This document shows, one piece after another, positions 6,038 through 53,328 of a stretch of DNA of 64,000 bases. Below the pieces are notes generated by a model. That model did not search any database, had not been told where the DNA came from, and saw only the letters and a program-made list of their open reading frames with translations. The DNA is from an uncultured Peptococcaceae bacterium (GTDB taxonomy: Bacteria; Bacillota; Peptococcia; Peptococcales; Peptococcaceae), in assembly GCA_964606855.1 (NCBI GenBank), contig CAZSHM010000003.1:9172-73171 (forward strand), written 5' to 3'. The first letter of the stretch is position 1; every line of letters starts with the position of its first letter. The translations under genes and the position numbers were made by a program.

Positions 6038-6080
6038 TTCCGCGCGTCCGGGCACAGAGCCCGGCGCGCGGAAGATTTTT
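6038..6080 (+). terminator. intra-operon intrinsic terminator/attenuator after the binding-protein gene
   Basis: A 14-bp GC stem ttccgcgcg(t)ccggg / cccggcgcgcggaa is followed by gaTTTTT. Confidence 0.6.
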
Positions 6081-6310
6081 GCCCGAGCGGGATTCCGCGC
6101 CGCGCGTGCGGCCGCACTTCCGCGCCGCCCAAAAGCGCTGTCCTTCGAGCCATGCGGCACCGCGGCGGTTCTTCGGCGCGCTCTGCCGATGTGTTTTCCG
6201 GCCCTCTTCCGACCGCGTCTTCCCGTACCTCTTCCTGATTCGCTTTTGCACAGTCTCACGCCCTCATTCTCAGAGCGTTCTTCCGTATGTTTCGCAAAGG
6301 AGTTTTTGCA

Positions 6311-8003: not shown

Positions 8004-8090
8004 AGCGCCTCTTCTCGCCCCGTCCGGATGCGCGGCGCGGGACAGTGCAGCCGCAGGGGGTTCCTGCGTTTCAGAAGCCTCTTTCAAATA

Positions 8091-8126
8091 ACGGCGCGGG
8101 GTTTCGGAAGTCGAACCCTGCGCCGT
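8091..8126. terminator. hairpin between convergent genes (probable bidirectional terminator)
   Basis: acggcgcggggtt / aaccctgcgccgt 13-bp stem with one G-U pair, followed by a T-rich tail. Confidence 0.45.
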
Positions 8127-8215
8127 CTATTCTACCTTTCTATTCTGCCTTCCTCTGCGATCGCTGCTCTGTGCCCTCCGGATGCCGCGCCGGCGGCAGG
8201 CTGCCTCCTCCGCGC

Positions 8216-14046: not shown

Positions 14047-15750
14047 TCAGGAGAAGATCTCCTCCGCGACCTTCTCCACGACCGCATCCAGCGGCACCAG
14101 CTCACTGGAGGCGGACGCGCGCGGCTTGTACTCGATCAGGCGCTCCTCCACGGCCTTTTTTCCCACCGTCAGCCGCAGGGGGCAGCCGATGAGATCCGCG
14201 TCTTTGAACTTGACGCCCGGCCGCTCGTTGCGGTCATCCAAGAGCACCTCGACGCCGCGCCGCCGCAGCGCCCGGTACAGCTCCTCCGCCAGCGCCATCT
14301 GCCCGGGATCCCTGGCGGAAACCGGCACCAGCGACACATGGTACGGCGCGATGCTCTTGGGCCAGAGGATGCCGTCCTCGTCGTGGTACTGCTCCACCAC
14401 GGCGGCCATGGTGCGGCTGACGCCGATGCCGTAGCAGCCCATGTGGATGACCTGGGACTTTCCGTTCTCATCCAGATAGTTGGCGCCCATCTTCGCGCTG
14501 TACTTGGTGCCCAGCTTGAAGATCTGCCCCACTTCGATGCCGCGCGCGCTGGAGAGCGCATGTCCGCACTTGGGGCAGGCCTCCCCCTCCCGCAGCATGC
14601 GCAAATCAAAGTAGCCGTCCACCTGGAAGTCGCGGCCTGGGTTGACGTGGATATAGTGATAGCTCTCCTCGTTGGCGCCGCAGACCAGGTTGCGCATCTG
14701 CTCCACCGCGAGATCCGCGTAGATTTTCACCCCCCGGAGCCCTACCGGTCCCAGGGAGCCGAACCCGCACCCGAGGAGGCGCACCACGTCCGCCTCCTCG
14801 GCCATCTCCAGCGACAGGCAAGGGTGCACCCGCTGCACCTTGACCTCGTTGACTTCGTGGTCGCCGCGCGCCAGCACGCAGATCAGCTCGTCATCGGCCC
14901 GGAAGAACAAAGTCTTGATGCATTTCTCCGCCGGCACACGGAGATAGTTTCCGACCGCCTCGATCGTCTTGGAATCCGGCGTGTACACCTTCTCCAGTTC
15001 CAGCGGCGCTTCCGCCGTGCCCTCCTCCGGAGGCGGGCACGGCGCGATCTCGAGATTGGCGGCATATCCGCACGCATCGCAGTAGACGATCGTGTTCTCC
15101 CCGATGTCCGCCAGGGCGGTGAACTCGTGGGTCTGGCTGTCGCCGATCGCGCCGCCGTCCGCCTCGATAGGGCGATATTTCAGCCCGCAGCGGTCAAAGA
15201 TGTTGCTGTAGGCGCGGTACATATCCTGGTAGCAAGCCTCCAGCCCCTCGGCGTCGCGGTCGAAGGAGTACATATCTTTCATGATGAACTCGCGCCCGCG
15301 GATCAGTCCGAACCGGGGGCGCTTTTCATCGCGGTACTTGTTCTGGATCTGATAGAGGCGCAGCGGCAGCTGGCGGTAGGAATTCACCTCGCCGCGCACC
15401 AGGTCAGTGACGATCTCCTCGTGCGTGGGACCCAGGCAGAACTGGCGCTCGTGGCGGTCGGTGACCTTGAACATCTCCTCGCCGTAGGCGTTCCAGCGCC
15501 CCGTCTCCAGCCACAGCTCGGCCGGCTGCAGAATCGGCATCAAGAGCTCCTGGCAGCCGGCGGCGTCCATCTCCTCGCGCACGATGGCCTCGATCTTGTC
15601 CAGCACCCGCTTGCCCAAGGGCAGATAGTGGTACAGGCCCGCGGCGTTCTTGCGGATGAAGCCCGCGCGCACCAAAAGCTGCTGGCTCACGGTATCGGCC
15701 TCCGCCGGCGTGTCCCGCAGCGTCGTGATAAAAGCTTTGCTCATTCTCAT
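14047..15750 (-). CDS. proS: proline--tRNA ligase (bacterial type with editing domain)
   Basis: [34 protein letters not shown]..., of class II aaRS ProS length, in conserved synteny upstream of polC. Confidence 0.95.
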
Positions 15751-15840
15751 ACGATTTGCTCTCTCCCTCGTAGTATTTTCCGGGCGGCCACCGGACGCGC
15801 CGCGCCGGAAGGAGTCCGCGCCGGTTCCGCACCGGCAGGT

Positions 15841-16914
15841 TCACGCATCGAGCAGCGCCTCCAGCTCCTCGCGGAAGGCATCCAGGAGCGACGCCTCCGG
15901 CACCCTGCGCACGATCTCCCCTCTGCGGAAGAGGATTCCCTCCCCTTTGCCGCCGGCGATGCCCAGGTCAGCTTCCCGCGCCTCTCCCGGCCCGTTCACC
16001 GCACAGCCCATCACCGCCAGCTTCAGCGGCCGCCGCGGCCGGTCCGCCGTCAGCTCGTCCACCAGCTGCTCCACCTGTTCCACCAGGCGCTCCAGCGGGA
16101 TCTGTGTGCGGCCGCAGGTGGGGCAGGAGATGATCTCCACCCCTCCGGGGCAGAGCCCCAGCGCCTGAAGGATCTGCCGCGCCACCGGGATCTCCTGCAG
16201 CGGATCCCCGGTCAGGGATACGCGGATCGTATCCCCGATGCCCTCCGCCAGGAGCGTGCCGATGCCCACCGCCGATTTCACGACCCCGTAGTGCGCGCTG
16301 CCCGCCTCCGTCACACCCAGGTGGAGCGGATAGGGGACGCGCGGCGCGATCTGCCGGTACGCGTCCAGCATCAGCGGCACGTCCGAAGCCTTGAGGGAGA
16401 TCTTGATCTGCGAAAAATCCAGCTCCTCCAGCAGCCGCACATGGCGCAGCGCGCTCTCCACCATGGCCTCCGCCGTGGGATGCCGGTATCGCTGCAGCAG
16501 ATCCTTCTCCAGAGAGCCGGCGTTGACGCCGATGCGGATGGGCACCCCCAGCCCCTTGGCCTTGGCCACAACCTCCCGCACATTCCGCGCGCCGCCGATG
16601 TTGCCCGGGTTGATGCGCAGCGCCGCGATGCCGTGATCCATGGCCAGCAGCGCCAGCCGGTGATTGAAGTGGATGTCGGCGATCACGGGGAGCGGGCTGG
16701 CGGCACAGATCTCCCGCAGCGCCAGCGCGGCCTCCTCGTCGGGCACCGCCACCCGCACCAGCTGACAGCCCGCCCGGGCCAGCCGCCGGATCTGGTCCAA
16801 GGTCGCCGCCGCGTTCCGGGTATCCGTGTTGGTCATGGACTGGATACTGACCGGAAAGTCGGATCCCACGCCCACGGAGCCGATCTGAAAATTTGTCGTC
16901 TTTCTCCTCTGCAC
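15841..16914 (-). CDS. ispG: 4-hydroxy-3-methylbut-2-enyl diphosphate synthase (flavodoxin)
   Basis: QRRKTTNFQIGSVGVGSDFPVSIQSMTNTDT... The preferred start is GTG at 16914, with GGGGAGG 9 nt upstream. An alternative ATG at 17013 abuts the rseP stop and would add about 33 aa. Confidence 0.85.
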   Translation of the reverse strand: MQRRKTTNFQIGSVGVGSDFPVSIQSMTNTDTRNAAATLDQIRRLARAGCQLVRVAVPDEEAALALREICAASPLPVIADIHFNHRLALLAMDHGIAALRINPGNIGGARNVREVVAKAKGLGVPIRIGVNAGSLEKDLLQRYRHPTAEAMVESALRHVRLLEELDFSQIKISLKASDVPLMLDAYRQIAPRVPYPLHLGVTEAGSAHYGVVKSAVGIGTLLAEGIGDTIRVSLTGDPLQEIPVARQILQALGLCPGGVEIISCPTCGRTQIPLERLVEQVEQLVDELTADRPRRPLKLAVMGCAVNGPGEAREADLGIAGGKGEGILFRRGEIVRRVPEASLLDAFREELEALLDA

Positions 16915-17014
16915 AGAGCGCAACCTCCCCCGCAAGTCTATTCTCTGCCTGCCGCACACGCACACAGATCCGATGCGTGCTCCCGCTGCCGCATCCACAA
17001 GGCGGCGGTGCATA

Positions 17015-22904: not shown

Positions 22905-24983
22905 TCAAAACGCTTCCTCCAGGATCTGATAGATCGGCGCGCCCTCACACTGCGCGGGCAGTCTGACCCCGGCTAAGACGCAGCAGGTCGGCGCCAGATC
23001 GACCTGACGGATCCAGCGGTCCGTCTCCTCGCCCTTCTTGATCCCCGGCCCGGCGGCGATGAAAATCGGGGAGGACGATGTGTAGCCGGCGCCATAGGTC
23101 GTAGACAGGCTGTCCGTGTGGTCATAGTTGTATCCCTCTGCGACCCAGACGCAGATATCGCCCGCGGTCGGCCCGCCGTAGCCGAGCAGAATCGCGTCCT
23201 TGTTGCGCAGCGCTAGGGCGACCACGCGTTTCCCGGTATCCGGATGCTTGTATCCGTACAGGTCGGTGATGATCTGCTCCTCCAGCTCGTACTGATCCTC
23301 GGGATCCACGATTCCGTGCGCCTCCCGGCCTTTCAGGTTGATGAAGATATCGTTGCCCATGGATTGGATCGCCCGGGTCTTGCTCCAGTCGATCTTCCGA
23401 ATTCTGTTCCCGTTCTCATCTCTCTGCAGCACCGTGTATCCCAGTTCCTCCATCAGACCCACATTCACGCCGCACATATCCCCGATGGCCGGCGGAATGT
23501 GGTACGGCGCGACCTGCGCATGGTCGGACGTGATCAGGATCGTCCAGCCCTCGTCCAGATAATGGAGCAGCGCGCCGACATAGCGGTCGACCTGCTGATA
23601 GAGGCGCAGCATCCACGCGGCATACACGGATTCCTCGTGCTGGTTGAAGCCGATATCGTGCATATGGCGGATGAATGTGTGCTCCACAAAGTCCACGGAG
23701 TGCAGATGGCTGAAGATTGCCTCGATCCCTTCACTCTCGATCATGTAGTCGATCGTCTTGATATACCAGTCGACCACATTGTCCCACACTTCGATCATGG
23801 CCTCCTGGGAATCCGCATCCTGCGTGTAGATCTGGGACTGCGGCGGGAACGGACCCACGTTCTCGAACAATTCTTTGGCCAGACGCTTCGGATGCAGCAC
23901 GCCGTCGTAATCGATGTCCATGGCCGCGGAGAGATACAGTTTCAGCTCACTGCCGTCCTCCTTCAGGCTCATCAGCTTATAGTGCCGGGTCGCGCGGTAG
24001 GTCTTGTCGTCCGAGATCACGTCGTCCAGAATGTTGTAGACCATTTTCCCGACCTTGCAGGTCGCCATCGGCACCGTGTCTTTCTTGGACTTGTAGACCT
24101 GCACCGTGTCATACACGCCGTCCTTGTTCTTCAGGATCAGGCCCAGGCGGCGAATCAGGCCGCCGCAGATCAGGATGGTGAACTCCTTCGCGCCCTCCGG
24201 AGCGGCCGCCCAGCCCTTCGCGGGTTTGATCGGAGAGATCGCGTTGTTCAGGTTCTGGTTGAAGTCGCCCGCGCGGGTGCCGAAGCCCTCCGCATCGTTC
24301 ATGACAAGATTGATCGTGTCCACGTTGTTCTCTTCGATCATCTTCTTCATTTCTTCGTTGTTGTACAGGTTCAGCATCTGCTGCATGCCGACGGCGGTGT
24401 CCGTCGCGCGGAGTGTCTCCTCAGGAAGTTTGGTGATCACGCAGGGCGCGACCGCGTCCGCGACTTTCTTCGCGACAAAGGTCGGTGCCTCGAATTTTTC
24501 ACTCGCGCCCACGAACAGCTCCGTATCCACCTGCATGGCGGCCGAACCGACCGATCCGGGCGCGGAGCCGTCGATCACGAACAGTTCCTCGCGGTCGCTG
24601 GTCGGCGGCCAGGCTCCGCCCGGCCAGTGGAAGACCAGGGTTTTCTTGCCCGCCTCGACAAAGCAGTTCCACATGGGTTCCGCTTTTACCAGACGGGAGT
24701 CTACATTGTAAGAACTCTGGTTGATCTTCCCCGGAACCGTCCGGCTGAACTGGGTGATGCCGTGCGTGCACGGGTTCGCCCCGGTGGCCAGCGTGGTCCA
24801 CTGCGGCGGCGTGACCGTCGGCTGGGAGCCCAGCATGACCAGATCATGCCGCTGGCAGCCGCGCTCAATCAATGTCTTGAAATTCGGCAGCAGCCCCTCA
24901 TCCACATACTTTCTGGTCAGGCGCGGATCCAAGCCGTCCACGCCCAGAACCATAATCTTCTCTGTAGAAGCTTTTCTCTCCAT
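22905..24983 (-). CDS. alkaline-phosphatase-superfamily enzyme (type I phosphodiesterase/nucleotide pyrophosphatase-like), about 692 aa, no signal peptide (copy A)
   Basis: GAGGAG RBS. VLGVDGLDP, LPNFKTL, nucleophile region QPTVTPPQWTTLATGANPCTHGI, distal ILITSDHA motif. Paralog of 46045..48162. Confidence 0.8.
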   Translation of the reverse strand: MERKASTEKIMVLGVDGLDPRLTRKYVDEGLLPNFKTLIERGCQRHDLVMLGSQPTVTPPQWTTLATGANPCTHGITQFSRTVPGKINQSSYNVDSRLVKAEPMWNCFVEAGKKTLVFHWPGGAWPPTSDREELFVIDGSAPGSVGSAAMQVDTELFVGASEKFEAPTFVAKKVADAVAPCVITKLPEETLRATDTAVGMQQMLNLYNNEEMKKMIEENNVDTINLVMNDAEGFGTRAGDFNQNLNNAISPIKPAKGWAAAPEGAKEFTILICGGLIRRLGLILKNKDGVYDTVQVYKSKKDTVPMATCKVGKMVYNILDDVISDDKTYRATRHYKLMSLKEDGSELKLYLSAAMDIDYDGVLHPKRLAKELFENVGPFPPQSQIYTQDADSQEAMIEVWDNVVDWYIKTIDYMIESEGIEAIFSHLHSVDFVEHTFIRHMHDIGFNQHEESVYAAWMLRLYQQVDRYVGALLHYLDEGWTILITSDHAQVAPYHIPPAIGDMCGVNVGLMEELGYTVLQRDENGNRIRKIDWSKTRAIQSMGNDIFINLKGREAHGIVDPEDQYELEEQIITDLYGYKHPDTGKRVVALALRNKDAILLGYGGPTAGDICVWVAEGYNYDHTDSLSTTYGAGYTSSSPIFIAAGPGIKKGEETDRWIRQVDLAPTCCVLAGVRLPAQCEGAPIYQILEEAF

Positions 24984-25041
24984 AAAACTCGCTCCTCTCC
25001 TCAATGGATCTTGTAAGGGAAACGGATATAGAAACGGATGT

Positions 25042-26493
25042 CTACGCCAGCAGGTAGTAGGGGATCAGCACAGCCATCAGCAGCAGAACCCCGTAGACCA
25101 TCAGCGCGGGCGTCCATTTATAGCACGTCACCGGTTTCAGTGATTCGCTGGAGTGCAGCAGGGCGCCCGGCAGGGAAGCCGCCGGCGTGAGATACGCGAC
25201 AAACACGCTGGAAAGGGAGATGATGACCGCGGCCGCCGTGATGTTGACATCGAACCCGTTGTTGTACATCGCGCAGACCAAGTTGATCATGACAAAGCAC
25301 ACTGCGATGTTGTTCCCGATGTTTGTCAGAAGGATGGTGACCAGTGCCAGCACAAACATGAAGAAGATTCCGCCGTTGTTGAACAGCGGCATCAGCAATC
25401 CTGCCAGCCAGCTGCTGATGCCCGTCTCCTCGCTGGTCAGAACCGTCGAGATCAAGAGGGCGATCGCGATCAGCATCAGCATATCCCACTGGAAGTCCGC
25501 TGCCGCTTTCTTCATGTCCAGAACCGGCTGCCCGTCCACCCGCCACGCGATCACAAACAGCCACAGAATCACCATCAGGCCCAGCACGCCCATCTGTACG
25601 TTGAGCCAGCCCAGAGCCTGGAACAGGTTGCCGAACATGCTGACCAGAACCACCAGGACGACGAAGATCACGACGGACCACACCGCGATCTTCTGCCGCA
25701 GATTCATCTTGGACTCCTGGGAAACCGGGAAGGTGGCCGCCACATCAACCGTCGCCAGTTTGTCGAATTTGCAGCCGCAAAGTTTCATCAGGAGCGGGTA
25801 GGTGAGCATCGCCACGGCGATCAAAAGAAGCATCAGGCCCATATACGCGTTGTAGGAGATCGGAACCTGCGTGAGCTGCATCATCGTGCCGGCCGTCATC
25901 AGGCTCCATCCCATAAAGGGAAAGATGCTCATCCCCATCTGCCCGGCCATCAGACAGCCCGCCAGGAAGAAATAATTGAATTTGTCGCCTTTCTCATAGC
26001 CGCACTTCAGCAGCATGCTGTTCATCAGCGGCAGCAGGGCAAAGTACAGGAACCAGACAATTCCCACGACATTGCCGACGATAAAAATCAGGAAGAAAAT
26101 CTCTAACATCATGACCGGGCTCTTTCGGATCAGCTTGCTGCTGAGCAGTTTCGCGATGATGTAATCCCCCGCGCCGGACTGCTGCACCGCCATGAAGGCC
26201 AGCACGCCGACGAGCATCATCAGCACCGTGCTGTTGCTGAACATCGCGACAAACACATCCTGGCAGCTGCCGTACCCGGTCGTCGCCAGCGCCACCGCCC
26301 CAAACAAGCTGGGAATCAGGAGTCCGATGAACGTCCAGCCGTAAACCAACCCGACAAAGACACCCGCCACAGCCATCCCGTACTCTGTCACACTCCCAGG
26401 AGGCGGCAGCAGACGGAACCCGAACGTCAGCAGAACCATCACGGTAAAATGGATCGCGTACTTGCTGACGCTTTTCTTTTTTACTTCCGACAT
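25042..26493 (-). CDS. polytopic permease, ion-transporter-superfamily-like (copy A)
   Basis: 483 aa with roughly 12-14 hydrophobic segments and a GAGGGGA RBS. Clear paralog of 41640..43121. The family call is by pattern only. Confidence 0.7.
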   Translation of the reverse strand: MSEVKKKSVSKYAIHFTVMVLLTFGFRLLPPPGSVTEYGMAVAGVFVGLVYGWTFIGLLIPSLFGAVALATTGYGSCQDVFVAMFSNSTVLMMLVGVLAFMAVQQSGAGDYIIAKLLSSKLIRKSPVMMLEIFFLIFIVGNVVGIVWFLYFALLPLMNSMLLKCGYEKGDKFNYFFLAGCLMAGQMGMSIFPFMGWSLMTAGTMMQLTQVPISYNAYMGLMLLLIAVAMLTYPLLMKLCGCKFDKLATVDVAATFPVSQESKMNLRQKIAVWSVVIFVVLVVLVSMFGNLFQALGWLNVQMGVLGLMVILWLFVIAWRVDGQPVLDMKKAAADFQWDMLMLIAIALLISTVLTSEETGISSWLAGLLMPLFNNGGIFFMFVLALVTILLTNIGNNIAVCFVMINLVCAMYNNGFDVNITAAAVIISLSSVFVAYLTPAASLPGALLHSSESLKPVTCYKWTPALMVYGVLLLMAVLIPYYLLA

Positions 26494-26777: not shown

Positions 26778-27773
26778 TCAGAGCCGCGCGGAATGCATGC
26801 AGGGCAGAACATTCCAGAGATACCCGTGATAGCGGAAACTGCGGACGGCTTTCTCCTTTCCTGTCGCCTCCAGCTCCTGCAGCCACGCCGCATACTTCTC
26901 CCGCGGCACGGCGGGCGGCAGGCGTTTCATCGCCTGCACAATCTCCAGGAACGGTTCGTTGTAGTAGCGCTCCAGCAGCTCCTGAAACTGCCGGCGTCCG
27001 GTATCCAGATCCCCGTAGGTGCCGGCGTAGTAGTCCTGCCGGAGGATCGGCGTGACGACCTTCCCCTCCGCGATCGCCTGGTTCCGCTGCTCGATGGTTT
27101 TCGTCTCAAAGGCGTTCCGCTTGTAGGAGATCGCCCCGTTCTGCACATAGGCGAACCCGCTGTAACTGCGCTTGTAATAATTGTATTCCAGGATATCCTC
27201 CTCCATCTTTCGGTACTCGTCCGCCAGCCAGTTCATCCAGTAGGCATAACCCTCCCGGGTCAGATGCTTCATGGTCAGCGCGTCCAGTGCCAGGCCCCGC
27301 AGGATCTCGAGCGCCACCCGGTCAAAGGTGTTCTCGGCCTCGTTCTTGGCCCGGAGCAGGATGGGCATCGCTTTGTCATCGGCCGGATAAGCGGAGAGAT
27401 CCTCCATGGCGGAAAAGTAGCACTTCGGGTAGTCCTCCCGCAGGGTGTAGGCCGTCTGGCGCTTGAACTTCTGCCGGATTTCGTCCCGGGCGCCCGCCAG
27501 GACATTGCACCGCATCACAAAATATCTGGGCGGGGTCGGATAGACGCTGCGCAGGATGCAGTTCGCGATGAATTTGTTCATGGAGCGCTCCGTGCTGCTG
27601 ATATAGTACTTGATCTTCCCGGACTCGATGAACGCGCTCCCGTAGCAGGCGAACTCCTCCTCCATAAACCCGCTGTTGATCAGTTCCTTCGACTGCGCGG
27701 CCGCGATCGCGTCGTGGTCCAGATCCTGGGTCAGCATATCATGCTCCGCTTCCAACATTGCCACGGTTCTCAC
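26778..27773 (-). CDS. hypothetical protein, Tyr/Trp-rich, no recognised domain
   Basis: Long non-shadow ORF inside the operon with plausible codon usage. The start is ambiguous: GTG 27773, GTG 27764 (best SD spacing), or ATG 27758. Confidence 0.6.
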   Translation of the reverse strand: MRTVAMLEAEHDMLTQDLDHDAIAAAQSKELINSGFMEEEFACYGSAFIESGKIKYYISSTERSMNKFIANCILRSVYPTPPRYFVMRCNVLAGARDEIRQKFKRQTAYTLREDYPKCYFSAMEDLSAYPADDKAMPILLRAKNEAENTFDRVALEILRGLALDALTMKHLTREGYAYWMNWLADEYRKMEEDILEYNYYKRSYSGFAYVQNGAISYKRNAFETKTIEQRNQAIAEGKVVTPILRQDYYAGTYGDLDTGRRQFQELLERYYNEPFLEIVQAMKRLPPAVPREKYAAWLQELEATGKEKAVRSFRYHGYLWNVLPCMHSARL

Positions 27774-27794: not shown

Positions 27795-28649
27795 TCAGTA
27801 GCTCGCCGTGGAAGCCGGGGAGGCGGCGGGCCAGATGCAGGCGCCGCTCACGCAAATCGTCTGCCCGCTGATAAACGCGGCGGCATCGCTTGCCAGGAAA
27901 ATAAAGACATGGATCAGTTCATCCGGATGACACATAAATCTTCCCATCGGCGCAAATTTTGCCGCCAGGTTCGAGGCCTCCGCCATCTGTTCCGCCATGG
28001 CCGCGTCCATCCGCACATTCGGGTTGGACATCGGCACCGGATTGCCGTCAAAGTCCACGGTCTGGATCCCCGCCGGAGCCACCGCGTTGACGCGGATCTT
28101 TTTCGGGCCGAGTTCCCTGGCCATGCCCAGCGTCAGCCCCTCCACGGCAAATTTCGACGCCGTGTAGCCGATATTTCGCATCGCGCCGTCCACACCGGCC
28201 ATGGAGCTGGTGTTGAGGATGGCGCCGCCGCCCTGTTCGGCGATCACTCTGGAAAGAACCTTGCTGGCCATGAACGTCCCCGTCACATTCACATCGAACA
28301 CGGTTTGAAAGAGTTCCTTCGGATATTCGTCGAATGTCTTCGCCGGGTACAGTCCCGCGTTGTTCACCAGGATATCGATCCCGCCCCAGTCCGCGCAGAT
28401 CTCCTCCGCCATGGCCTCCAGCTCCTCCTCGCTGCTCAGGTTCGGGCGAAAGCCTTTCACCTGATAGGCGGGATCCAGCGCCCGCAATTTTTCTACCGCC
28501 TCCGCGTATGTCTCCTGCGGAGCGCAGCAGATCGCCACGTTCGCGCCGCACTCCAGGAATCTCCTGGCCATCAGCAGGCCCAGTCCGCGGTTGGCCCCCG
28601 TGATGACGGCACGCTTTCCCTTCAAAATTTCTCCGAAATACCGATGCAT
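27795..28649 (-). CDS. short-chain dehydrogenase/reductase (SDR)
   Basis: AGGAGG lies 8 nt before the ATG at 28649. TGANRGLG, NNAG and S...YTASK catalytic motifs. Confidence 0.9.
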   Translation of the reverse strand: MHRYFGEILKGKRAVITGANRGLGLLMARRFLECGANVAICCAPQETYAEAVEKLRALDPAYQVKGFRPNLSSEEELEAMAEEICADWGGIDILVNNAGLYPAKTFDEYPKELFQTVFDVNVTGTFMASKVLSRVIAEQGGGAILNTSSMAGVDGAMRNIGYTASKFAVEGLTLGMARELGPKKIRVNAVAPAGIQTVDFDGNPVPMSNPNVRMDAAMAEQMAEASNLAAKFAPMGRFMCHPDELIHVFIFLASDAAAFISGQTICVSGACIWPAASPASTASY

Positions 28650-28650: not shown

Positions 28651-29178
28651 CTACACGCCTCCTGTGCTTCCGATTTGTATTGCCGCAGACTCCTCCGTCC
28701 GGGACAGGCCCTTCTTCCGGGAAAGTTTCGCATCGTAGAGCTCCACGATCAGGCCGGTGTCCTTCCGCAGATCCATGTAACAGTAGAATCCGTTCTCGGC
28801 CGATCCGCCCTCCACCAGCGTCTCCGCGCCCAGCGCCCGCATCCGCTCCCGCATGCCCGCGTAATCGTTCACGCCGAGACAGATGTGCTGTATGCCCGGG
28901 CCATGCTGATCGAAGAACTCCTTCTGGGAATTGACGTCCCCTCCCGTGTGCTGGATAAATTCAAACTCCACGCCCGCGACTTGTACCATGGCCAGCCGCA
29001 TATAAGCCGTGACCAGCCGTCCCCGGAACTTGACGGGCGCATTCTGTTCCGACAGATCGACATACCGGATCCCGGCAGGATCGATCGCGCACATGGCGCA
29101 GAGTGTCTCCGCCGCTCTCCGCGCGTCGGCCACCACAATGCCGATCTGAAAAAACTTCTCCACCTTGACTTCGCCCAA
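28651..29178 (-). CDS. VOC (glyoxalase/bleomycin-resistance/dioxygenase) family protein
   Basis: TTG start at 29178 with GGGAGGA 6 nt upstream. FFQIGIVVAD...VEFEFIQH...GIQHICLGV...LIVELY beta-alpha-beta-beta-beta repeats. Confidence 0.7.
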   Translation of the reverse strand: MGEVKVEKFFQIGIVVADARRAAETLCAMCAIDPAGIRYVDLSEQNAPVKFRGRLVTAYMRLAMVQVAGVEFEFIQHTGGDVNSQKEFFDQHGPGIQHICLGVNDYAGMRERMRALGAETLVEGGSAENGFYCYMDLRKDTGLIVELYDAKLSRKKGLSRTEESAAIQIGSTGGV

Positions 29179-29198
29179 TGTACGTCCTCCCTCGCGCG

Positions 29199-30005
29199 CT
29201 ACAAGATTTGTTTGATGTTCGACGTGACCTGCAGATCCACATAGAAGTGATCCTCGGTCTGCACGACACGCACCGGATAATTTAGAAAATCGCTCATGGA
29301 CGCGTCGGTAAAGAGATCCTGCGATCTGCCCTTCGCATAGATTGTCCCGTTCCGCAACAGCAGGCATTTGTCAAACAGCTGCAGAATCTCCTCCGTATAG
29401 TGCGTGACGTAGATCACCGTCATCTCCGGGTTTTCCGCCAGCGCCCGAACCGTGGCGAGCATATATTCTCTGGCAAACACATCCAGGCCGGTCCCCGGCT
29501 CGTCCAGAATCAGCATCTCCGGGTTGCTGATCAAGGCCCGCGCGATCAAAACATTCTGCCGCTCTCCCTTGGACAGCAGATCGAACGTGCGGTGCATTTT
29601 GGCTTCCAGCCCCAATTCCGCCAGAAGCTGATTCGCGCGCCGGATGTCCGCGTTGCGAACCTTCCAGCGGTTGTTCCCCAATTTTCCGCTGATTCCGGAA
29701 AGCACGATGTTCAGAACGCTCTCCCGCTGGTAATACCGGTCAAAGAAGGAACTGCTGATCCATCCCACTTTCTTGCGCTTTTCCAGGATATTCTCCTCGG
29801 TGTAGGGGCTGCCGAAGACCTCCACAGAGCCTCCCGAAAACCCGCGGAACCCCGCAATGATGCTCAGGAGCGTCGTTTTCCCCGATCCGTTCAGGCCGAA
29901 AACGACCCAGTGCTCCCCCTTTTGCACGGACCAGTCGATATTGCTCAGCAGCGCGTGGTTTCCGGCCAGGCAGGTCAGATCGCGCAATCTCACTACTTCT
30001 GCCAT
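29199..30005 (-). CDS. orphan ABC ATPase, ModF/YlmA (COG1119)-like, no cognate permease (copy A)
   Basis: Walker A GLNGSGKTT, signature LSKGERQNVLIARAL, Walker B MLILDEPGTGLD, H-loop VTHYTEEI. Paralog of 45032..45859. Confidence 0.85.
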   Translation of the reverse strand: MAEVVRLRDLTCLAGNHALLSNIDWSVQKGEHWVVFGLNGSGKTTLLSIIAGFRGFSGGSVEVFGSPYTEENILEKRKKVGWISSSFFDRYYQRESVLNIVLSGISGKLGNNRWKVRNADIRRANQLLAELGLEAKMHRTFDLLSKGERQNVLIARALISNPEMLILDEPGTGLDVFAREYMLATVRALAENPEMTVIYVTHYTEEILQLFDKCLLLRNGTIYAKGRSQDLFTDASMSDFLNYPVRVVQTEDHFYVDLQVTSNIKQIL

Positions 30006-30017
30006 GTTCCCGCCCCC

Positions 30018-30431
30018 TCAGTCCAGCGTCTCATCTTCCAGCATCAGGGCTTCCCCCAAAAGTTCCGTCTTCAGATCCAGAGAGGTCGTAAAACCGTCCT
30101 CGCGCAGGAGGCCGAGATTCCGGCAGCCCCAATCGATGATCTCGCTCACCTTGGCGATATTCATCTCTCTTTTGCGGATATTGTTGTCCAGATCCTTGTA
30201 GTAATCAAAACGCAGCTCGTCTACAAAATACTCTGCCACCTCGTAAATCTCCGGTTCCACCCCGTATTCGATGCGCTTGCAGTGGTCACAATAGATTTCC
30301 AGCTTGGAGATATCGTAACTGCTGTAGGTCAGTTTGCGCAGTTCCAGCGTCCCGCCGCAATAACTGCAGCGGCATCTCCGCACCCGCTTTCTCAGGCGCT
30401 CCTCCTCCTGTTTCTCCGCAGTCTCGTCCAT
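30018..30431 (-). CDS. small zinc-ribbon protein (CxxC...CxxC), 137 aa (copy A)
   Basis: The internal ATG at 30431 gives MDETAEKQEEERLRKRVRRCRCSYCGG...IYCDHCKRIEYGVE... Homologous along its length to 44612..45028. The upstream part of the 255-aa ORF overlaps two terminators. Confidence 0.7.
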   Translation of the reverse strand: MDETAEKQEEERLRKRVRRCRCSYCGGTLELRKLTYSSYDISKLEIYCDHCKRIEYGVEPEIYEVAEYFVDELRFDYYKDLDNNIRKREMNIAKVSEIIDWGCRNLGLLREDGFTTSLDLKTELLGEALMLEDETLD

Positions 30432-30604
30432 TCTGAAATTCAGCCACCGATCCTTCGCGGCATCCACAAAAATCCCTTCTTTCTCGCTCGCCCTTCTGCG
30501 ACAATTTCTCCTCTGCTTATCGCAATTATAAATCCGCCTTTTGCAAGTTGTTTCGCCCGAGTTCTTTATAATCCACGCGCTTTCTAGTAAAAAATACCTA
30601 CTAC

Positions 30605-41639: not shown

Positions 41640-43121
41640 TCACGGCTGCAAGTTGGCGCAGAACAGATTCGGGAACGTCAGACTGACGATGACCGACATG
41701 ACCAGCGCCAAAAGGATCCACGGGACACAGACTTTGTAGAGCTGCTTCTTGTTCACCCATTCCGTGTTGCCAAACACCATCGCGGCCATCATGCTGCCGC
41801 TCGGTGCCAGATAGGCCCATTGCGTACCGAAATAGACCGCCATGATGGCGATCATCGGGTTGTAGCCGGCCGCCACCAGGATCGGCGCCAGGAGAGGCGC
41901 AAAGACCATCTGCAGCACCATGTTCATGGAGAACTGACTGATCGCGCACATGAGCACGCAGACCGCGATCACAAAGACCAGGAGCGACATCTTGCTCACC
42001 ATCGGAACCAGGATCGCGGACAAGAACGCCAGCACGCCCGTCCCCTCCGATACCAGGGCCGCCGCGATCACCATGATGGCGCCCGTCAGCAGAACCATAT
42101 CCCAGCTGACATTGGACATCAGCCGCGTGAAATTCGCAAACGGCTCCCCGTCCTCCTTCTTGCAGAGGATCAGGATGGCCACCGTGAGGATCCCGCAGAC
42201 GCCCACCATTCCGGCCTTGCTGAAGAGCGCCGTGAAGGCCCAGCTCGCAGGCAGGACCGACGGAATCAGCATGGCGACGCAGAAGAGCAGCAGAATCACC
42301 GCGCCGCGCTTCTGGTCGGCGTTCAGGCTGACTTTCTTCCCCGCGCCGCTCTCCAGCAGCGCCTCGGAACCGTCCTTAAATTTTTTCGTGTCGATGCGGG
42401 CGATGAATTTCCCGGTCAGGAGGAACAGCACAAGCGCCAACGCGAGCGGAACCGAGATGCACATCGTGTACTGAAACCCGGTCAGCGCCGCCCCGCCCAT
42501 GGCGGTCGAGAGGATGCCGCGCGTGTAAATAGAGCCCGGCATGAAGAACGGCCATACCGTAAAGAGCCCGCTCATGGAGATGCCGAGCATGACGAAGGTC
42601 GGCAGGGCGTCCCCTTTCGTGTACCCCATCTTCTTCAGGACGGGGCCCATAAAGCTGAAGCCCAGAAGGATCATCATAATCGGGTTTCCAATGAAAGGTG
42701 CGAGAATTGCCAGCGCAAAAAACAAGAACGTCATAAACACCCATGGCTTTCCTACGGCGAACTTTCTGGTGACCAGCCAGGTCGCCACAACGTCCAGCAG
42801 GTTTGTCTCATTGATGTAGGCAAACAGAATAAAACCGACCAGAGACGCGATGAAGGTCGTGTTCGTCAAGAGCAGGCCCAGCGCGGCTTCCGGGGTCTCC
42901 GCATATCCGCAGAAGCCGAGCATAATCACGCCCAGGATGCTCGGCCAGAGCATTCCGCAGGTGCTCCAGCCCCAAATCATCCCGAGAAAAATGCATATCA
43001 CGGACACGCCCAGCGGTGTGATCGGCGCGGGCGCCGGGAGGACAAACCCCAGCAACATGAGTGCGATAACGATACAAGGATTCAGATACGTTTTGATCAG
43101 ACGCTTTCCATCAGACATCAT
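41640..43121 (-). CDS. polytopic permease, ion-transporter-superfamily-like (copy B)
   Basis: 493 aa, paralog of 25042..26493, with the same N-terminal L(L/V)P(P/A)P...G(M/V)...WGW/YGW pattern. Two adjacent ATGs at 43121 and 43118. Confidence 0.7.
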   Translation of the reverse strand: MMSDGKRLIKTYLNPCIVIALMLLGFVLPAPAPITPLGVSVICIFLGMIWGWSTCGMLWPSILGVIMLGFCGYAETPEAALGLLLTNTTFIASLVGFILFAYINETNLLDVVATWLVTRKFAVGKPWVFMTFLFFALAILAPFIGNPIMMILLGFSFMGPVLKKMGYTKGDALPTFVMLGISMSGLFTVWPFFMPGSIYTRGILSTAMGGAALTGFQYTMCISVPLALALVLFLLTGKFIARIDTKKFKDGSEALLESGAGKKVSLNADQKRGAVILLLFCVAMLIPSVLPASWAFTALFSKAGMVGVCGILTVAILILCKKEDGEPFANFTRLMSNVSWDMVLLTGAIMVIAAALVSEGTGVLAFLSAILVPMVSKMSLLVFVIAVCVLMCAISQFSMNMVLQMVFAPLLAPILVAAGYNPMIAIMAVYFGTQWAYLAPSGSMMAAMVFGNTEWVNKKQLYKVCVPWILLALVMSVIVSLTFPNLFCANLQP

Positions 43122-43468: not shown

Positions 43469-44377
43469 CTATATAAACTTTTTGATCATCCCCTGCGCCG
43501 CGGTGATATACTTTTGCGGCAATCCCTGCCGCCAGCAGATCGTCAGCGCCAGCCGCATGTCCGTCTGGATGGGGATGTAGCGCACTTCCGCCTCCCTGTC
43601 TAAGTTTCTCCTGCAGCCGACGCTTACACCCTGATCCATCTTCAGCATCGCCGTCAGGACCTGCACACTGGAGAGATTCGCGATGATGCGGAGCTTTCCG
43701 TACTCCTCCAGCATTTCCAGAATCGGAAAGGCCTGATCATACCCCTGCGTGAAGCGCAGAAACGGGAGCTTTGCCGCGTCCTCCGGCGAGATCTGTTTCC
43801 TGTCATCCGCGATCCACTGGGAATGGGCAGCCGCGAGAACACACGGCTTTTCCGTCGAGACTTTGTAAAAGCAAAGATTCGTCCACGCCGAGAATTTCTC
43901 TTCGATCGGCTCTACAAAGTATCCGATCAGGACGGTGTTCGGATGCTCTTCCAGAAATTGCAGGCTCTTGTCGTTCTCGTAGAGGATGTCCGGAAATTCC
44001 GCATCGATCCCCTGCTCAAGCATGTAGGGGAGGAAACGCTCCACACTCCCCTGCCACCATCCACGGGGAAGCAGAACCGTCAGCTTCTCCCGCTTCTCCC
44101 GCGCGGCCCCCTTGGTCCGGATCGCCTCGATCTCGCGCTCCACTTTTTCCACCTCCGCAAACAGGCGCTCCGAGCGCACGGCGATCTGTTTCGCCTCCTC
44201 CGTCAGTTCGATGCCGCGATACGTGCGCAGGAGCAGTTTGATCTCCCAGTCATGCTCCAGCTTGTGCAGCGCAGCGCTGATCGTGGACGGCGCCACCGGA
44301 ATCGATTCTGCCGCCAGGCGGATGGAATTAAACCGGTATACCCGGCACAGATAGTCGAGCGGTTCGAGCTTCAACAT
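43469..44377 (-). CDS. LysR-family transcriptional regulator
   Basis: N-terminal wHTH (FNSIRLAAESIPVAPSTISAALHKLEHDWEIKLLLRTYRGIELTEEA) plus a substrate-binding-like C-terminus. Confidence 0.85.
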   Translation of the reverse strand: MLKLEPLDYLCRVYRFNSIRLAAESIPVAPSTISAALHKLEHDWEIKLLLRTYRGIELTEEAKQIAVRSERLFAEVEKVEREIEAIRTKGAAREKREKLTVLLPRGWWQGSVERFLPYMLEQGIDAEFPDILYENDKSLQFLEEHPNTVLIGYFVEPIEEKFSAWTNLCFYKVSTEKPCVLAAAHSQWIADDRKQISPEDAAKLPFLRFTQGYDQAFPILEMLEEYGKLRIIANLSSVQVLTAMLKMDQGVSVGCRRNLDREAEVRYIPIQTDMRLALTICWRQGLPQKYITAAQGMIKKFI

Positions 44378-44611: not shown

Positions 44612-45028
44612 TTACCCTCTCGCTCTGCGCCGTTTAAATTTCTCAAAATCCGGCAGGCCTGTCTTCAGGCCGTGATCGTCCAGCAGATCGATATTTTTTA
44701 AGATCCAGGTGATCATATCGGCCACCTTGGAGATGTTCAGCTGCGTATTCAGATCATTCTCTTCCATGTCATAGAAATAGTTGAACTGGAAATTCTCCAC
44801 ATAGTACTCCGCCAAGTCATAGACCGCTTTCTCCACCCCGAACTCCGTCTTCTCACACTTTGGGCAATAGAGTTCCAATCCGGCGCCGCCATAGATGTCA
44901 TAGATCACCAAACCCGTCGTCAATTTCCCGCCGCAGCGCTTGCAGACGCACCGCTCCTGCCGCGCCTTCAGCATCTCCTTCTCTGTCTCGCTGCTGCCCT
45001 GACCGCCTCGAGCCATCCCTTCGCCCAT
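44612..45028 (-). CDS. small zinc-ribbon protein (CxxC...CxxC), 138 aa (copy B)
   Basis: RCVCKRCGG...LYCPKCEKTEFGVEKAVYDLAEYYVENFQFNYFYD... aligns with copy A. It starts 3 nt after the ABC ATPase stop. Confidence 0.7.
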   Translation of the reverse strand: MGEGMARGGQGSSETEKEMLKARQERCVCKRCGGKLTTGLVIYDIYGGAGLELYCPKCEKTEFGVEKAVYDLAEYYVENFQFNYFYDMEENDLNTQLNISKVADMITWILKNIDLLDDHGLKTGLPDFEKFKRRRARG

Positions 45029-45031: not shown

Positions 45032-45859
45032 TCACGCCTCGCTTTCCATGTCTTGCATCCACACATCCCGCTTCATCCGCAGTTCCTCGCCGATATGGAT
45101 CTGAAACGTTCCGTCTTTATGTTCTACGTATGTGGGGTGTCCAAAGAAATCACTCAGGGTTCCGGCAGAGAATACCTCCGCGATGTCCCCCTGCGCATAG
45201 ACTTTCCCGTTTTGCAAAAGCAGCGCTTTCTGATAAAACGGCAGAATCTCCTCCGCATGGTGCGTGACAGAGACGACGGTCACATCCGTTGTCTCCGCGA
45301 TCTCCTGCAGGGTATTCAAAAAGAACTCCCGCGCGATCAGATCCAGCCCGTTCAGTGGCTCATCCAGCAGCAGCAGTCTCGGCGGCACCATCAGGGCGCG
45401 CGCCAGCAGCACCCGCTGCCGCTGCCCCTGTGAAAGCATGTCATAGGGATAGTCCGCCCGCGCGGCGACGCCAAGCGCCTTTAAAAGGTCTCTCGCCTTT
45501 CTCACATCGGCATCCCGGATCTCCCTCTGCCGCCCCAGCCCGCCGAATTTTGCCGCCAGGACGATATCTAGGCCGCTCTCCCGGCGGAAACAGCGGTCCA
45601 GAAACGAGGCGCTGACAAAGCCGACACGTTTTCGCAGTTCCGCCGCGCTCTTCCCGTCCAGCGTTTCTCCGAACAGTTTCACAGAGCCCTTGTTGTGGGA
45701 TTTATAGCCCGCAACCGTACTCAGCAGGGTCGTCTTGCCGCACCCGTTCGCGCCGAAGACGATCCAGTGCTCCCGCTCCCGAACCGTCCAGTTGATGTCC
45801 TGCAGCAGGTACTTGCTGCCCTGTTTGTGGGATAACCCGTTTGTCTCGATCACATGCAT
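45032..45859 (-). CDS. orphan ABC ATPase, ModF/YlmA (COG1119)-like (copy B)
   Basis: GANGCGKTT, LSQGQRQRVLLARAL, LLLLDEPLNGLD, VTHHAEEI. The start is chosen at the ATG giving MHVIETNG (GAAGGA 9 nt upstream). The ORF could extend to 45886. Confidence 0.85.
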   Translation of the reverse strand: MHVIETNGLSHKQGSKYLLQDINWTVREREHWIVFGANGCGKTTLLSTVAGYKSHNKGSVKLFGETLDGKSAAELRKRVGFVSASFLDRCFRRESGLDIVLAAKFGGLGRQREIRDADVRKARDLLKALGVAARADYPYDMLSQGQRQRVLLARALMVPPRLLLLDEPLNGLDLIAREFFLNTLQEIAETTDVTVVSVTHHAEEILPFYQKALLLQNGKVYAQGDIAEVFSAGTLSDFFGHPTYVEHKDGTFQIHIGEELRMKRDVWMQDMESEA

Positions 45860-46044: not shown

Positions 46045-48162
46045 CTACCGAATCAGTCGCTTCCCGAGCGGCAGAGCCCATTCATCCCCGCGCTCATATT
46101 TTGTCTCCTCGAAGTCCTCCAGGGCCTGGTAGATGACGCCGCCCTCGACGTTCCCCGGCATCGGCGTGTCGGTCAGATAGCAGATCGTGGGCACGATGTC
46201 CGTAATATGCACCGGCCGGTCGATCAGGGCGCCCTTCTTCAATCCCGCACCTCCCATGACGCAGAGGTTCTGCATGGACCAGCCCTCATGGTGCGCCGTG
46301 GAGAAGGTGTTCGCGTGCTCATTGTTGAACGTCGGAACCAGCTGGAAGAAGATGTCCCCGCAGTGCACGCCGCCCATGCCCAGATACTCCATCTCATCCC
46401 GCGTGAAGCAGTGCGCAATCACGCGCTTGCCGTCCGCATTGCGATAGTTGTACAAGTCGCTGATAAGATCCAGCACCAGCTGGTGGTAGTCCTCCGGCTC
46501 GACAATCCCCTCCGGATCTCTGCCCTTGAGATTGACATAGACATGGGAGGAGCGCTTCGCAACCGCCCGCGTTTTGCTCCAGTCCACTTCCAGTTTTCCC
46601 TCTGCGTTGCGCTTGGTCACGGTATAGCCCAGCTTGGTCATCACTTCCGTGGAGATCCCGCCGATGGAGCCGATCCCGCCGTACTCGTCCCCCTCGCTGT
46701 GCGGCATGCAGCCGTGGTCGCTCACGACAAAGATGGTCGTGTCCCCATCCAGATACTGCAGCATTTCGCCGATGAATTTGTCGTTCTCCATATAGACGGC
46801 GTCGATCAGATCCCGGTAGTACTGGTAATCCTCGTTTCTGCCCGGCACGGTGTTCTGCACGAACCAGTGCTGGAAGTTGTCGATGGAGTGGATATGCACA
46901 TAGTACAGCTGCCAGTCCGGATACTTTTGGAACAGCCAATGGGTCGCCTTGGCGAACCATTCGCAGCCCTCCTTCGCATAGGTGTCAAAGACCAGCTTGT
47001 CGTTCTCCTTGGACTTCCCGCGCACATCGACAGATGCGAACTGGATCAGCGGGCCGACCGCGTCGTACAATTCGCGGCCCATCTCCCGCGGGTAGAAGTA
47101 ATCCAGATTATCCATGTCCGTCGCGTGGGAGAAATACACAACCGCGCTGCTGCCGTCCTCGGCGATGTCGCAGAGGTTGATCTTATACGCGACCTTGTGC
47201 TCCTCCTCGTCGAACATATAGAAATCGTAGATGAACTCGGACCAGTTCCCGATCCCTGTGACGCTGCCCAGCGGCTTCTCCGTCTTCTTGTTCCTGTAGA
47301 TCGTCGCCGTATCGTAGTGCGCGCCGTCAGAGGCGCTGAGCACGATAAACCGCCGCGCGGTACCGGTTCCCAGAATCACCGCGGCTTCCTTCGCGCCCTC
47401 CGGCAGCGGGAAACTCCAGTTCGTCGGGTTCTTCAGCGCGGTCCGGATCTTATCCGCCTTGCTGGGTCTGTAGTGCTCCTGATGTTCCGCCGCTGCCTCC
47501 GCCGCCCGCTCATAGTCCTCCACGCCGCTCGGGTAGGACAAAACACCCTCCGGGGAGGACCAGGGCATCCGCACATCCATCCTGGATACTTTTGCCTTCT
47601 TCTGCATCTCCTCATACTGGTCGCCCATAATGATGCAGTCCTTGTTGTCGCTCTTCACGGCATGCGGCGTAAACTCCATCGGAAAATCTCCCTCCTCCAG
47701 GAAGGCGACTTTCTGATAGTCGAGCGTGCAGCGCAAAAACGGCACGACACCGGAGCCGTCGACAAACACACCGTACGGGTCGTCCTGGATGCGCGGCGGC
47801 CAGGCCTCGCAATAGCTCAGCGCGATGCTGCGCTTCCCCGCTTTGGAGAACGCTTCCCAGATAAAATCCGATGTCACATTCAGGCTCGTCCAGTTGACCT
47901 CTTCCAAGCTCAGGCTCTGTCCCAGAGTCTGATTGTTGTAGCACGTGATGCCGTGCGTCCGAGGCAGATTTCCCGTGGCAATCGAGCACCAGTTCGGCGG
48001 CGTGACGCTCGGCAGCGCGCCGATCATGGCGAGACTCGAATTCGCGACGCCTTGGTCCAGCAGCTTTTTCAAGTTCGGCATTTTGCCAGCATCCATCAAT
48101 CGTTTGCACTGCACCGGATCCGCGGAATCCAGGCCGATCACCATCGCTCTCTTCAATCCCAT
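46045..48162 (-). CDS. alkaline-phosphatase-superfamily enzyme (type I phosphodiesterase/nucleotide pyrophosphatase-like), 705 aa, no signal peptide (copy B)
   Basis: AGGAGGG RBS. VIGLDSADP, MPNLKKL, LPSVTPPNWCSIATGNLPRTHGI, VVSDHG. Paralog of 22905..24983. Confidence 0.8.
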   Translation of the reverse strand: MGLKRAMVIGLDSADPVQCKRLMDAGKMPNLKKLLDQGVANSSLAMIGALPSVTPPNWCSIATGNLPRTHGITCYNNQTLGQSLSLEEVNWTSLNVTSDFIWEAFSKAGKRSIALSYCEAWPPRIQDDPYGVFVDGSGVVPFLRCTLDYQKVAFLEEGDFPMEFTPHAVKSDNKDCIIMGDQYEEMQKKAKVSRMDVRMPWSSPEGVLSYPSGVEDYERAAEAAAEHQEHYRPSKADKIRTALKNPTNWSFPLPEGAKEAAVILGTGTARRFIVLSASDGAHYDTATIYRNKKTEKPLGSVTGIGNWSEFIYDFYMFDEEEHKVAYKINLCDIAEDGSSAVVYFSHATDMDNLDYFYPREMGRELYDAVGPLIQFASVDVRGKSKENDKLVFDTYAKEGCEWFAKATHWLFQKYPDWQLYYVHIHSIDNFQHWFVQNTVPGRNEDYQYYRDLIDAVYMENDKFIGEMLQYLDGDTTIFVVSDHGCMPHSEGDEYGGIGSIGGISTEVMTKLGYTVTKRNAEGKLEVDWSKTRAVAKRSSHVYVNLKGRDPEGIVEPEDYHQLVLDLISDLYNYRNADGKRVIAHCFTRDEMEYLGMGGVHCGDIFFQLVPTFNNEHANTFSTAHHEGWSMQNLCVMGGAGLKKGALIDRPVHITDIVPTICYLTDTPMPGNVEGGVIYQALEDFEETKYERGDEWALPLGKRLIR

Positions 48163-51729: not shown

Positions 51730-51734
51730 TATTC

Positions 51735-53324: not shown

Positions 53325-53328
53325 TTTG

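Follow-up and report, generated by a model that had tools for sequence, protein, structure and literature searches.

ATP-binding cassette (ABC) domains act as nucleotide-dependent dimers. In the SufBC2D complex, a dimer of the soluble ABC ATPase SufC sits on the pseudo-symmetric, non-membrane pair SufB/SufD, and the soluble ATPase ArsA, which is not an ABC protein, turns the secondary carrier ArsB of the IT superfamily into a primary pump. Trm112, a small zinc-ribbon protein, is the obligatory protein partner of an enzyme. PhnK and PhnL, two ABC ATPases without a transporter role, bind the carbon-phosphorus (C-P) lyase complex and remodel it by ATP hydrolysis (PMC9947105). ABC proteins of the ModF/YlmA type, which consist of nucleotide-binding domains (NBDs) only, are widespread, and our literature searches on the function of COG1119, ModF and YlmA found no defined function. 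The present work deals with two gene pairs, each encoding a single-NBD ABC ATPase and a small zinc-ribbon protein, in the DNA of an uncultured Peptococcaceae bacterium (GCA_964606855.1, contig CAZSHM010000003.1, positions 9,172 to 73,171 of the forward strand); this whole stretch of 64,000 nucleotides (nt) is referred to as the window. Both pairs belong to a conserved, lineage-specific module with an uncharacterised type of ABC ATPase and two new protein families, the zinc-ribbon protein and a pseudo-dimeric protein of about 320 residues (here U331). The ATPase, the zinc-ribbon protein and, usually, U331 are probably the parts of a new soluble accessory complex driven by ATP.

Set beside these systems, the module would be a non-transport ABC ATPase with soluble partners, which is a known kind, and its mechanism is read from gene context only. 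With the YlmA/ModF-type proteins of the Protein Data Bank (PDB; entries 2ihy and 4hzi), the ATPases share a single ABC domain of about 270 residues, a Ser residue in the Q-loop and the lack of an adjacent ABC membrane component. Unlike them, the ATPases of the window and of the related loci form a narrow subfamily, which is always tied to the zinc-ribbon protein and to enzymes of the alkaline phosphatase (AP) superfamily; the widespread members are not known to have such a partner, and the rarity of the zinc-ribbon family argues against one. ModF itself has two NBDs and about 490 residues. The likeness to PhnK and PhnL extends to the AP enzyme, which has the phosphonate hydrolase PhnA as nearest solved relative; however, this enzyme is an AP-superfamily metallohydrolase and not a radical-SAM lyase, zinc ribbon and U331 are unrelated to Phn proteins, and the analogy would be functional only. 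The core genes PhnG/H/I/J are absent from the scanned open reading frames (ORFs) of the window and from the related loci with Pfam labels, and the 25 NCBIfam matches listed per ATPase do not include PhnK or PhnL. U331 resembles SufB/SufD in being a pseudo-dimer through internal duplication, but its model has no fold match to either protein and no Fe-S assembly genes lie in its context. The resemblance to Trm112 is weak, is restricted to the zinc knuckles and stays below the thresholds (Trm112p, PF03966: 15.9 bits and E 0.012 for one window protein, copy A below, against a gathering threshold of 22 bits, and no match for the other, copy B; Trm112_arch: E 0.13); nothing in Trm112 corresponds to the helical body (residues 60-105) or to the tail, and the partner is an ATPase instead of a methyltransferase.

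Two copies of the module in one window

The ORF listing of the window contains all four genes of the pairs on the minus strand (Table 1). In copy A, 12 nt separate the small gene, which an initial annotation of this DNA had placed at 30018..30431, from the ATPase gene downstream of it, and in copy B the zinc-ribbon gene comes second, 3 nt after the ATPase gene, in agreement with the coordinates and the spacing first given. Only the start of the copy A zinc-ribbon gene has to be moved: it most likely is GTG 30467, 12 codons before ATG 30431, since a Shine-Dalgarno-like sequence (GAAGGGA) precedes the former and none the latter, and since the orthologues keep the additional KD(K/R)WLNFR and the public annotation (P0001) likewise has 149 residues. 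The two ATPases align with 45% identity across 255 residues (E 3e-78) and the two small proteins with 37% across 116 residues (E 1e-31), and the motifs quoted in the initial annotation are present in them. Looked up by exact sequence, the window's own proteins had no entry.

Cluster A (30467 to 22905) comprises, in this order, the zinc-ribbon protein, the ATPase, a VOC-fold protein, a short-chain dehydrogenase/reductase (SDR), U331, an IT-superfamily permease and a 699-residue AP-superfamily enzyme, and cluster B (48162 to 41640) a 705-residue AP-family enzyme, the ATPase, the zinc-ribbon protein, a LysR regulator and a permease. The AP-family enzymes of both clusters are 29% and the permeases 26% identical, which places both within the duplicated block of the window. 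Copies A and B are old paralogous copies of a lineage-specific accessory module, and to regard the unit as a pair was too narrow, as most modules add the obligatory protein of about 320 residues and the duplication takes in the enzyme and the permease.

Distribution, forms and co-diversification

Scanning 185,579 species genomes for the zinc-ribbon protein, we obtained 74 loci in about 31 species-level genomes, onto which the window proteins were mapped to score the neighbours (loci are numbered L001 onwards where they have to be told apart). Among 1.84 billion representative sequences the family forms 160 clusters at 50% identity, many of which are fragments. The carriers are nearly all gut metagenome-assembled genomes (MAGs) named 'Peptococcaceae bacterium', the others being the cultured Desulfitobacterium sp. 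Sab5 (L022) and one MAG each of Syntrophomonas, Gracilibacteraceae and Eggerthellaceae, and two MAGs hold at least eight module copies each. Because the family is confined to such a narrow lineage, the zinc-ribbon protein cannot be regarded as a general ModF/YlmA partner, and the broader proposal of the initial annotation, a missing partner for the whole COG1119/ModF/YlmA class, is not borne out.

The ATPase gene adjoins the zinc-ribbon gene on the same strand in 76 of 76 testable members of other genomes (three further members lie at contig ends), so that the co-occurrence reaches beyond the genome under study; this adjacency is far beyond chance. Two forms of the module exist. In the major form, to which copy A belongs, the order is zinc-ribbon gene, ATPase gene, U331 gene, with a U331 homologue downstream in all 49 testable loci (in L022 it was detected by profile comparison only, E 3e-72). 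The minor form, that of copy B, has the ATPase gene before the zinc-ribbon gene and is devoid of U331. Altogether, 65 loci show the zinc-ribbon gene first, and 11 loci and copy B of the window the ATPase gene first. Searching the six-frame ORFs around the two-gene modules with a hidden Markov model (HMM) revealed no U331, and a U331-like domain hidden near them was rejected on the same search; nor is it concealed as a fusion in the AP enzymes, since the enzymes of both forms are about equal in length. The two-gene form is monophyletic in the tree of the zinc-ribbon protein as well as in that of the ATPase, and therefore the inversion and the loss of U331 are one event. The earlier argument from inverted order thus holds insofar as adjacency survived the inversion, but it counts as one independent test and not as many. 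In one locus (L011) two-gene and three-gene modules lie side by side.

The genes are tightly spaced: the computed gaps between zinc-ribbon and ATPase ORFs have a median of -8 nt where the zinc-ribbon gene comes first and of +10 nt in the reverse order, and in L001 the called genes of the zinc-ribbon protein, the ATPase and a 321-residue protein overlap by 8 and 4 nt. Shine-Dalgarno-like sequences sit inside the upstream gene, and the zinc-ribbon protein probably is co-translated with the ATPase. Mirror-tree comparison gave correlations (r) of 0.84 for zinc-ribbon protein and ATPase, 0.88 for zinc-ribbon protein and U331 and 0.84 for ATPase and U331; with the AP enzyme, the values are 0.66 (zinc-ribbon protein) and 0.69 (ATPase), and zinc-ribbon protein and permease reach 0.80. 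Given the constant co-occurrence, the tight or overlapping genes, the correlated trees and an adjacency that outlasted the inversion, zinc-ribbon protein and ATPase are very likely functional partners, as the initial annotation had supposed for this ATPase.

The zinc-ribbon protein

Compared with their orthologues, the zinc-ribbon ORFs show ratios of nonsynonymous to synonymous differences (pN/pS) of 0.11-0.33 (0.11-0.28 for copy A), which is the same range as for the ATPase, with 0.10-0.25 nonsynonymous differences per site and saturated synonymous sites. Judged by this pattern, the small ORFs, whose translation had been left as a point to be checked, are genuine genes under purifying selection. 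In 57 sequences of the family C22, C25, C48, C51, R16, G26, G57, W101 and G113 are invariant. The AlphaFold model (AF2; predicted local distance difference test, pLDDT, 90; predicted template-modelling score, pTM, 0.80), made like that of U331 from a relatively shallow alignment, consists of an N-terminal helix, a zinc-ribbon hairpin (residues 29-48, between the CxxC knuckles) and two longer helices, and ends in a tail with less order. Based on the two invariant CxxC knuckles and the modelled hairpin, the protein is classed as a zinc ribbon, for which metal binding is predicted. It belongs to no named family, as had been suspected: no Pfam, NCBIfam, PADLOC or PHROG model matches above threshold. 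Fold searches with the model gave no match in the PDB (best E 0.46, template-modelling (TM) score below 0.25), one marginal unnamed viral match in BFVD (E 7.9e-4, TM 0.40, root-mean-square deviation 11 Å) and local matches to Lar-type zinc knuckles, the latter two being uninformative.

The family is acidic, with a median isoelectric point (pI) of 4.96 (range 4.5-7.6), which makes an adaptor role more likely for the protein than nucleic-acid binding; its first Cys knuckle is preceded by 20 residues whose net charge is about +3. The tail that follows the invariant G113 measures 23-55 residues in the three-gene form and 4-20 residues in the two-gene form, without overlap. Copy A, with 24 residues, is typical of the former, and copy B ends 18 residues past the invariant Gly in a basic KRRRARG. 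Tail length tracks the presence of U331, which suggests that the tail serves this protein. We further observed that the two-gene-form proteins (window 44612-44665; L069-L076) share a conserved basic LPDY..Y..RRR ending, in place of which the three-gene-form proteins have the longer acidic tail.

Distant relatives with about 30% identity and 100-135 residues preserve the same CxxC...CxxC...YV...F.YY...W pattern. Such relatives are encoded in phage-like early regions (L083 6001-6336, L087 1689-2015), which carry an Erf recombinase annealing single-stranded DNA or an exonuclease-like gene, besides DUF7352, and in L085 (209-565), where the C-terminus of an ATPase lies directly upstream. The history of the zinc-ribbon domain may be wider than that of the module and independent of the ATPase.

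The third component, U331

U331-type proteins are soluble, have about 320 residues (331 in the window) and consist of two homologous halves, residues ~39-160 aligning with residues ~200-315 (hhalign probability 97%, E 1e-10). The window protein is 26% identical to the 321-residue protein that follows the ATPase in L001. Like the zinc-ribbon protein it finds no match in Pfam, NCBIfam, PADLOC or PHROG, and its AF2 model (pLDDT 84) has none in a PDB fold search, so that the confident models of both new families are unlike anything in the PDB. An NBD dimer could plausibly sit on U331, which its internal duplication makes pseudo-symmetric. In one Peptococcaceae MAG (L035, 6200-8074) a single ORF of 624 residues joins the ATPase in frame to a U331-type protein; if natural, this fusion would support a physical interaction of the two. 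The idea that the zinc-ribbon protein represents a single copy of the U331 repeat, which would have explained the two-gene form, was rejected (hhalign probability 0.1-0.2%).

The ABC ATPase

Pfam describes both ATPases as a single ABC NBD (PF00005). Walker A, the signature, Walker B with the catalytic Glu, the D-loop and the H-loop are all intact, and Ser stands at the Gln position of the Q-loop; conservation across 75 homologues is 90% or higher for the motifs G.NG.GKTTLLS, S.G..Q, LDEP, GLD and YVTH. The nearest PDB entries, 2ihy from S. aureus (E 2e-48) and 4hzi (E 8.5e-36), are both uncharacterised NBD-only proteins, and the Ser-for-Gln substitution, G-x-x-S-x-S and YVTH are common to all three. 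By these closest matches and the substitution, the ATPase seems to belong with the YlmA/ModF-like NBD-only proteins, a placement by likeness rather than a COG assignment. ModF is the top NCBIfam match of the copy A ATPase, yet below the cut-off: the ModF equivalog (PRK10938) demands 459 bits, and the two window proteins, with one NBD in place of two, reach 124.5 and 116.8 bits; by these scores they are ModF-like, not ModF.

The absence of an ABC membrane partner, already assumed in the initial annotation, is seen here as well. No genes of ABC transmembrane or binding proteins occur among the Pfam-scanned window ORFs (a set that leaves out seven ORFs at 3475..10120 and 14047..17013) or, in L001-L004 and L079-L082, among the neighbours with Pfam labels, and a CitMHS-type secondary carrier is the sole type of membrane protein near the pairs in the scanned ORFs.

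The neighbouring enzyme of the AP superfamily

Neighbours were counted in the 31 loci whose flanks reach 6 kb or more on both sides. In 30 of them an AP-family gene is no farther than 5 kb from the module, and in 20 a permease is equally close; a LysR gene, counted up to 6 kb, is present in 7. Directly upstream of the two-gene modules stands the AP gene in 9 of 11 cases, and three-gene modules have the AP gene in this position in 24 cases and the permease in 21; four two-gene modules have the permease immediately downstream of the zinc-ribbon gene. The four loci L001-L004 show only the AP gene, zinc-ribbon gene, ATPase gene and U331 gene, in this order, beside LysR. Two loci (L011 1-20390 and L025 1-20393) contain five AP-family genes each within 20 kb.

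D12, T54-P55-P56, H423, H425, D428, H432, D482, H483 and H616 are invariant in the enzyme. By these bimetal ligands, the Thr nucleophile and a PF01663 match above threshold, it belongs to the NPP/PhnA branch of the AP superfamily. Profile matches, which cover the N- and C-terminal core only, name PhnA (phosphonoacetate hydrolase), bacterial NPP and PafA as nearest solved relatives, with about 250-300 residues between the matched segments that are free of any match. No signal peptide was seen in the enzyme, and for this reason we read it as a putative cytoplasmic hydrolase of the phosphoryl-transfer type, with an imported anion as its substrate.

Proposed mechanism and alternative explanations

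Since the module nearly always adjoins the AP enzyme, in cassettes often together with LysR, we propose this enzyme as its target; complex formation, stoichiometry and target are what we infer from gene context. The ATPase would work as a nucleotide-dependent dimer, the pseudo-symmetric 320-residue protein could form the platform beneath it in place of the membrane domains of a transporter, and the zinc-ribbon protein may serve as adaptor subunit, whose C-terminal tail, in the three-gene form only, would contact the 320-residue protein. Binding and hydrolysis of ATP might then act mechanically on the adjoining enzyme, possibly by opening or gating its active site or a cap domain, or in the assembly of its metal centre; PhnK and PhnL at the C-P lyase core and SufC at SufB/SufD serve as precedents. 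To this model as a whole, a soluble ABC-ATPase complex acting on the AP-family enzyme, we assign a probability of about 0.5. The further-reaching idea of a new class of soluble ABC machine, in which ATPase, zinc-ribbon protein and U331 use ATP to drive or gate NPP/PhnA-like catalysis, is tentative, with the odds clearly against it. If it holds, gut Peptococcaceae could cleave phosphorus (or sulfur) compounds beyond the reach of a plain hydrolase, the machine would match PhnK/PhnL of C-P lyase in function, and a first molecular role would be defined for a ModF/YlmA-type NBD-only ABC protein. In any case, the two obligatory partners and the constant enzymatic neighbour of this subfamily open the way to direct biochemistry, and the many module copies per genome suggest that substrate-inducible cassettes form a large and unexplored group in the gut, the likely compounds being anionic and phosphorus-containing (or related).

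Several points weigh against the proposed action on the enzyme. In L081 (192-4718), a unit of LysR, AP enzyme and permease is devoid of the module, although a module-bearing unit lies some 2 kb away, and therefore the enzyme evidently is able to work alone and the module is optional for at least some paralogues. Co-diversification with the zinc-ribbon protein is no weaker for the permease than for the enzyme (0.80 vs 0.66), and duplication of the block as a unit also yields mirror-tree correlations. We know of no characterised NPP/PhnA-type enzyme that needs ATP for hydrolysis. The phage-like early regions hold distant relatives of the zinc-ribbon protein and no ABC ATPase at all, and the fusion of ATPase and U331, seen in one MAG only, could be an assembly error.

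The best of the other explanations takes the adjoining IT-superfamily permease as the target: the ATPase complex would dock onto it, with zinc ribbon and U331 as adaptors, and convert the carrier into an ATP-driven pump, much as ArsA does with ArsB. The frequency of the permease near the modules (20 of 31 well-flanked loci), its place directly upstream of the zinc-ribbon gene in three-gene or downstream of it in two-gene modules and the zinc-ribbon/permease correlation all fit this explanation, and the basic RRR tail of the two-gene form could face the membrane. However, such a permease is missing from the surroundings of about one third of the well-flanked loci, L001-L004 among them, the pair of copy B is separated from its permease by a LysR gene and a terminator-like hairpin, and the likeness to ArsA is limited by the latter being a non-ABC ATPase; to our knowledge, no ABC domain couples to a carrier of the IT fold. 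We consider this explanation unlikely.

A regulatory device, as suggested in the initial annotation, is still less favoured. Here, the zinc ribbon would bind DNA, RNA or LysR, and the ATPase would switch the catabolic genes in a nucleotide-dependent manner. Zinc ribbons often are nucleic-acid binders, the segment before the first Cys knuckle is positively charged, LysR genes recur near the modules, and the distant relatives lie next to recombination genes in phage early regions; the whole protein, in turn, is acidic and matches no helix-turn-helix or known nucleic-acid-binding fold in the PDB or BFVD, and the LysR genes, which often are already part of the clusters, could themselves be the regulator, their presence in just 7 of the 31 well-flanked loci making for a loose link. 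Taken together, this renders a regulatory role quite improbable. An anti-phage defence or mobile-element cassette of an ABC/AAA_21-type ATPase and small effectors, merely lying beside metabolic genes, was rejected as very improbable, because the weak ATPase matches to the PADLOC defence models mad3 and AriA and to AAA_21 reflect generic ABC-fold similarity (the best matches being classical transporter-type NBDs), zinc-ribbon protein, U331 and AP enzyme match no PADLOC model, plasmid and phage collections gave no matches in spite of the distant relatives in phage-like DNA, the association with AP enzyme, permease and LysR is stable over about 31 genomes, and the window has housekeeping flanks, with no integrase among the flank genes examined.

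Gene content of the clusters and their surroundings

Table 1. Positions of the genes and hairpins of clusters A and B in the window
Feature	Position	Strand	Remarks
Zinc-ribbon protein, copy A	30018..30467	-	149 residues from GTG 30467; ATG 30431 gives 137 residues; CxCxxC...CxxC
Single-NBD ABC ATPase, copy A, YlmA/ModF-like	29199..30005	-	268 residues; PF00005 E 2e-27
VOC/glyoxalase-fold protein	28651..29169	-	PF13669 E 1.6e-12; GTG 29169 start inferred from translation
Short-chain dehydrogenase/reductase	27795..28649	-	adh_short E 2.8e-51; probable start ATG 28649, 284 residues
U331, third module component	26778..27773	-	331 residues; two homologous halves; without known family
IT-superfamily permease (CitMHS / Na-sulfate-symporter-like), copy A	25042..26493	-	PF03600 E 6e-15
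AP-superfamily enzyme, copy A, NPP/PhnA-like	22905..25004	-	699 residues; PF01663 E 1e-25
AP-superfamily enzyme, copy B, first gene of the copy B operon	46045..48162	-	705 residues; PF01663 E 1.7e-26
Single-NBD ABC ATPase, copy B	45032..45859	-	275 residues; PF00005 E 7e-28
Zinc-ribbon protein, copy B, short-tailed form	44612..45028	-	138 residues; in the ATPase-first clade without U331
LysR-type transcription regulator	43469..44377	-	HTH_1 and LysR_substrate domains
IT-superfamily permease, copy B	41640..43121	-	PF03600 E 1.7e-11
Two terminator-like hairpins	30779-30750 and 30633-30609	-	between ylbF and the copy A zinc-ribbon gene

The longest ORF of the VOC gene (28651-29367) shares about 170 nt with the ATPase gene, and GTG 29169 is its probable real start. 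In the orthologous cluster of L079, no VOC gene lies between the ATPase and SDR genes; a glyoxalase-like ORF of 95 residues is located downstream of the AP gene instead. The SDR orthologue of this locus has 282 residues, near the length obtained from ATG 28649.

The two hairpins of Table 1 mark the upstream boundary of cluster A, the second of them falling within the leader region (about 330 nt) of the copy A zinc-ribbon gene. In cluster B, terminator-like hairpins were located at 48423-48384 (the groEL terminator), 43452-43437 and 41495-41471; the first lies, together with a promoter-like site (48269-48240), upstream of the AP gene, and the other two bound the permease. An Rfam search found no element in either cluster or leader, its only matches being three tRNAs elsewhere in the window, and a riboswitch or leader RNA upstream of either cluster was rejected on these grounds. 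The tRNA genes (RF00005, 60-66 bits) stand in tandem on the plus strand at 51656-51918.

The clusters are flanked by housekeeping genes, namely ylbF, miaB, hem genes, groESL, cinA, cdsA, dxr, rseP and frr-pyrH-tsf-rpsB. Firmicutes usually have rpsB-tsf-pyrH-frr and cdsA-dxr-rseP-(proS)-polC joined in a single uninterrupted array. In the window, about 32 kb separate frr from cdsA (17015-20447 vs 52767-55858), and this stretch holds the three tRNA genes, groESL, both cassettes, the hem genes, miaB, ylbF and cinA.

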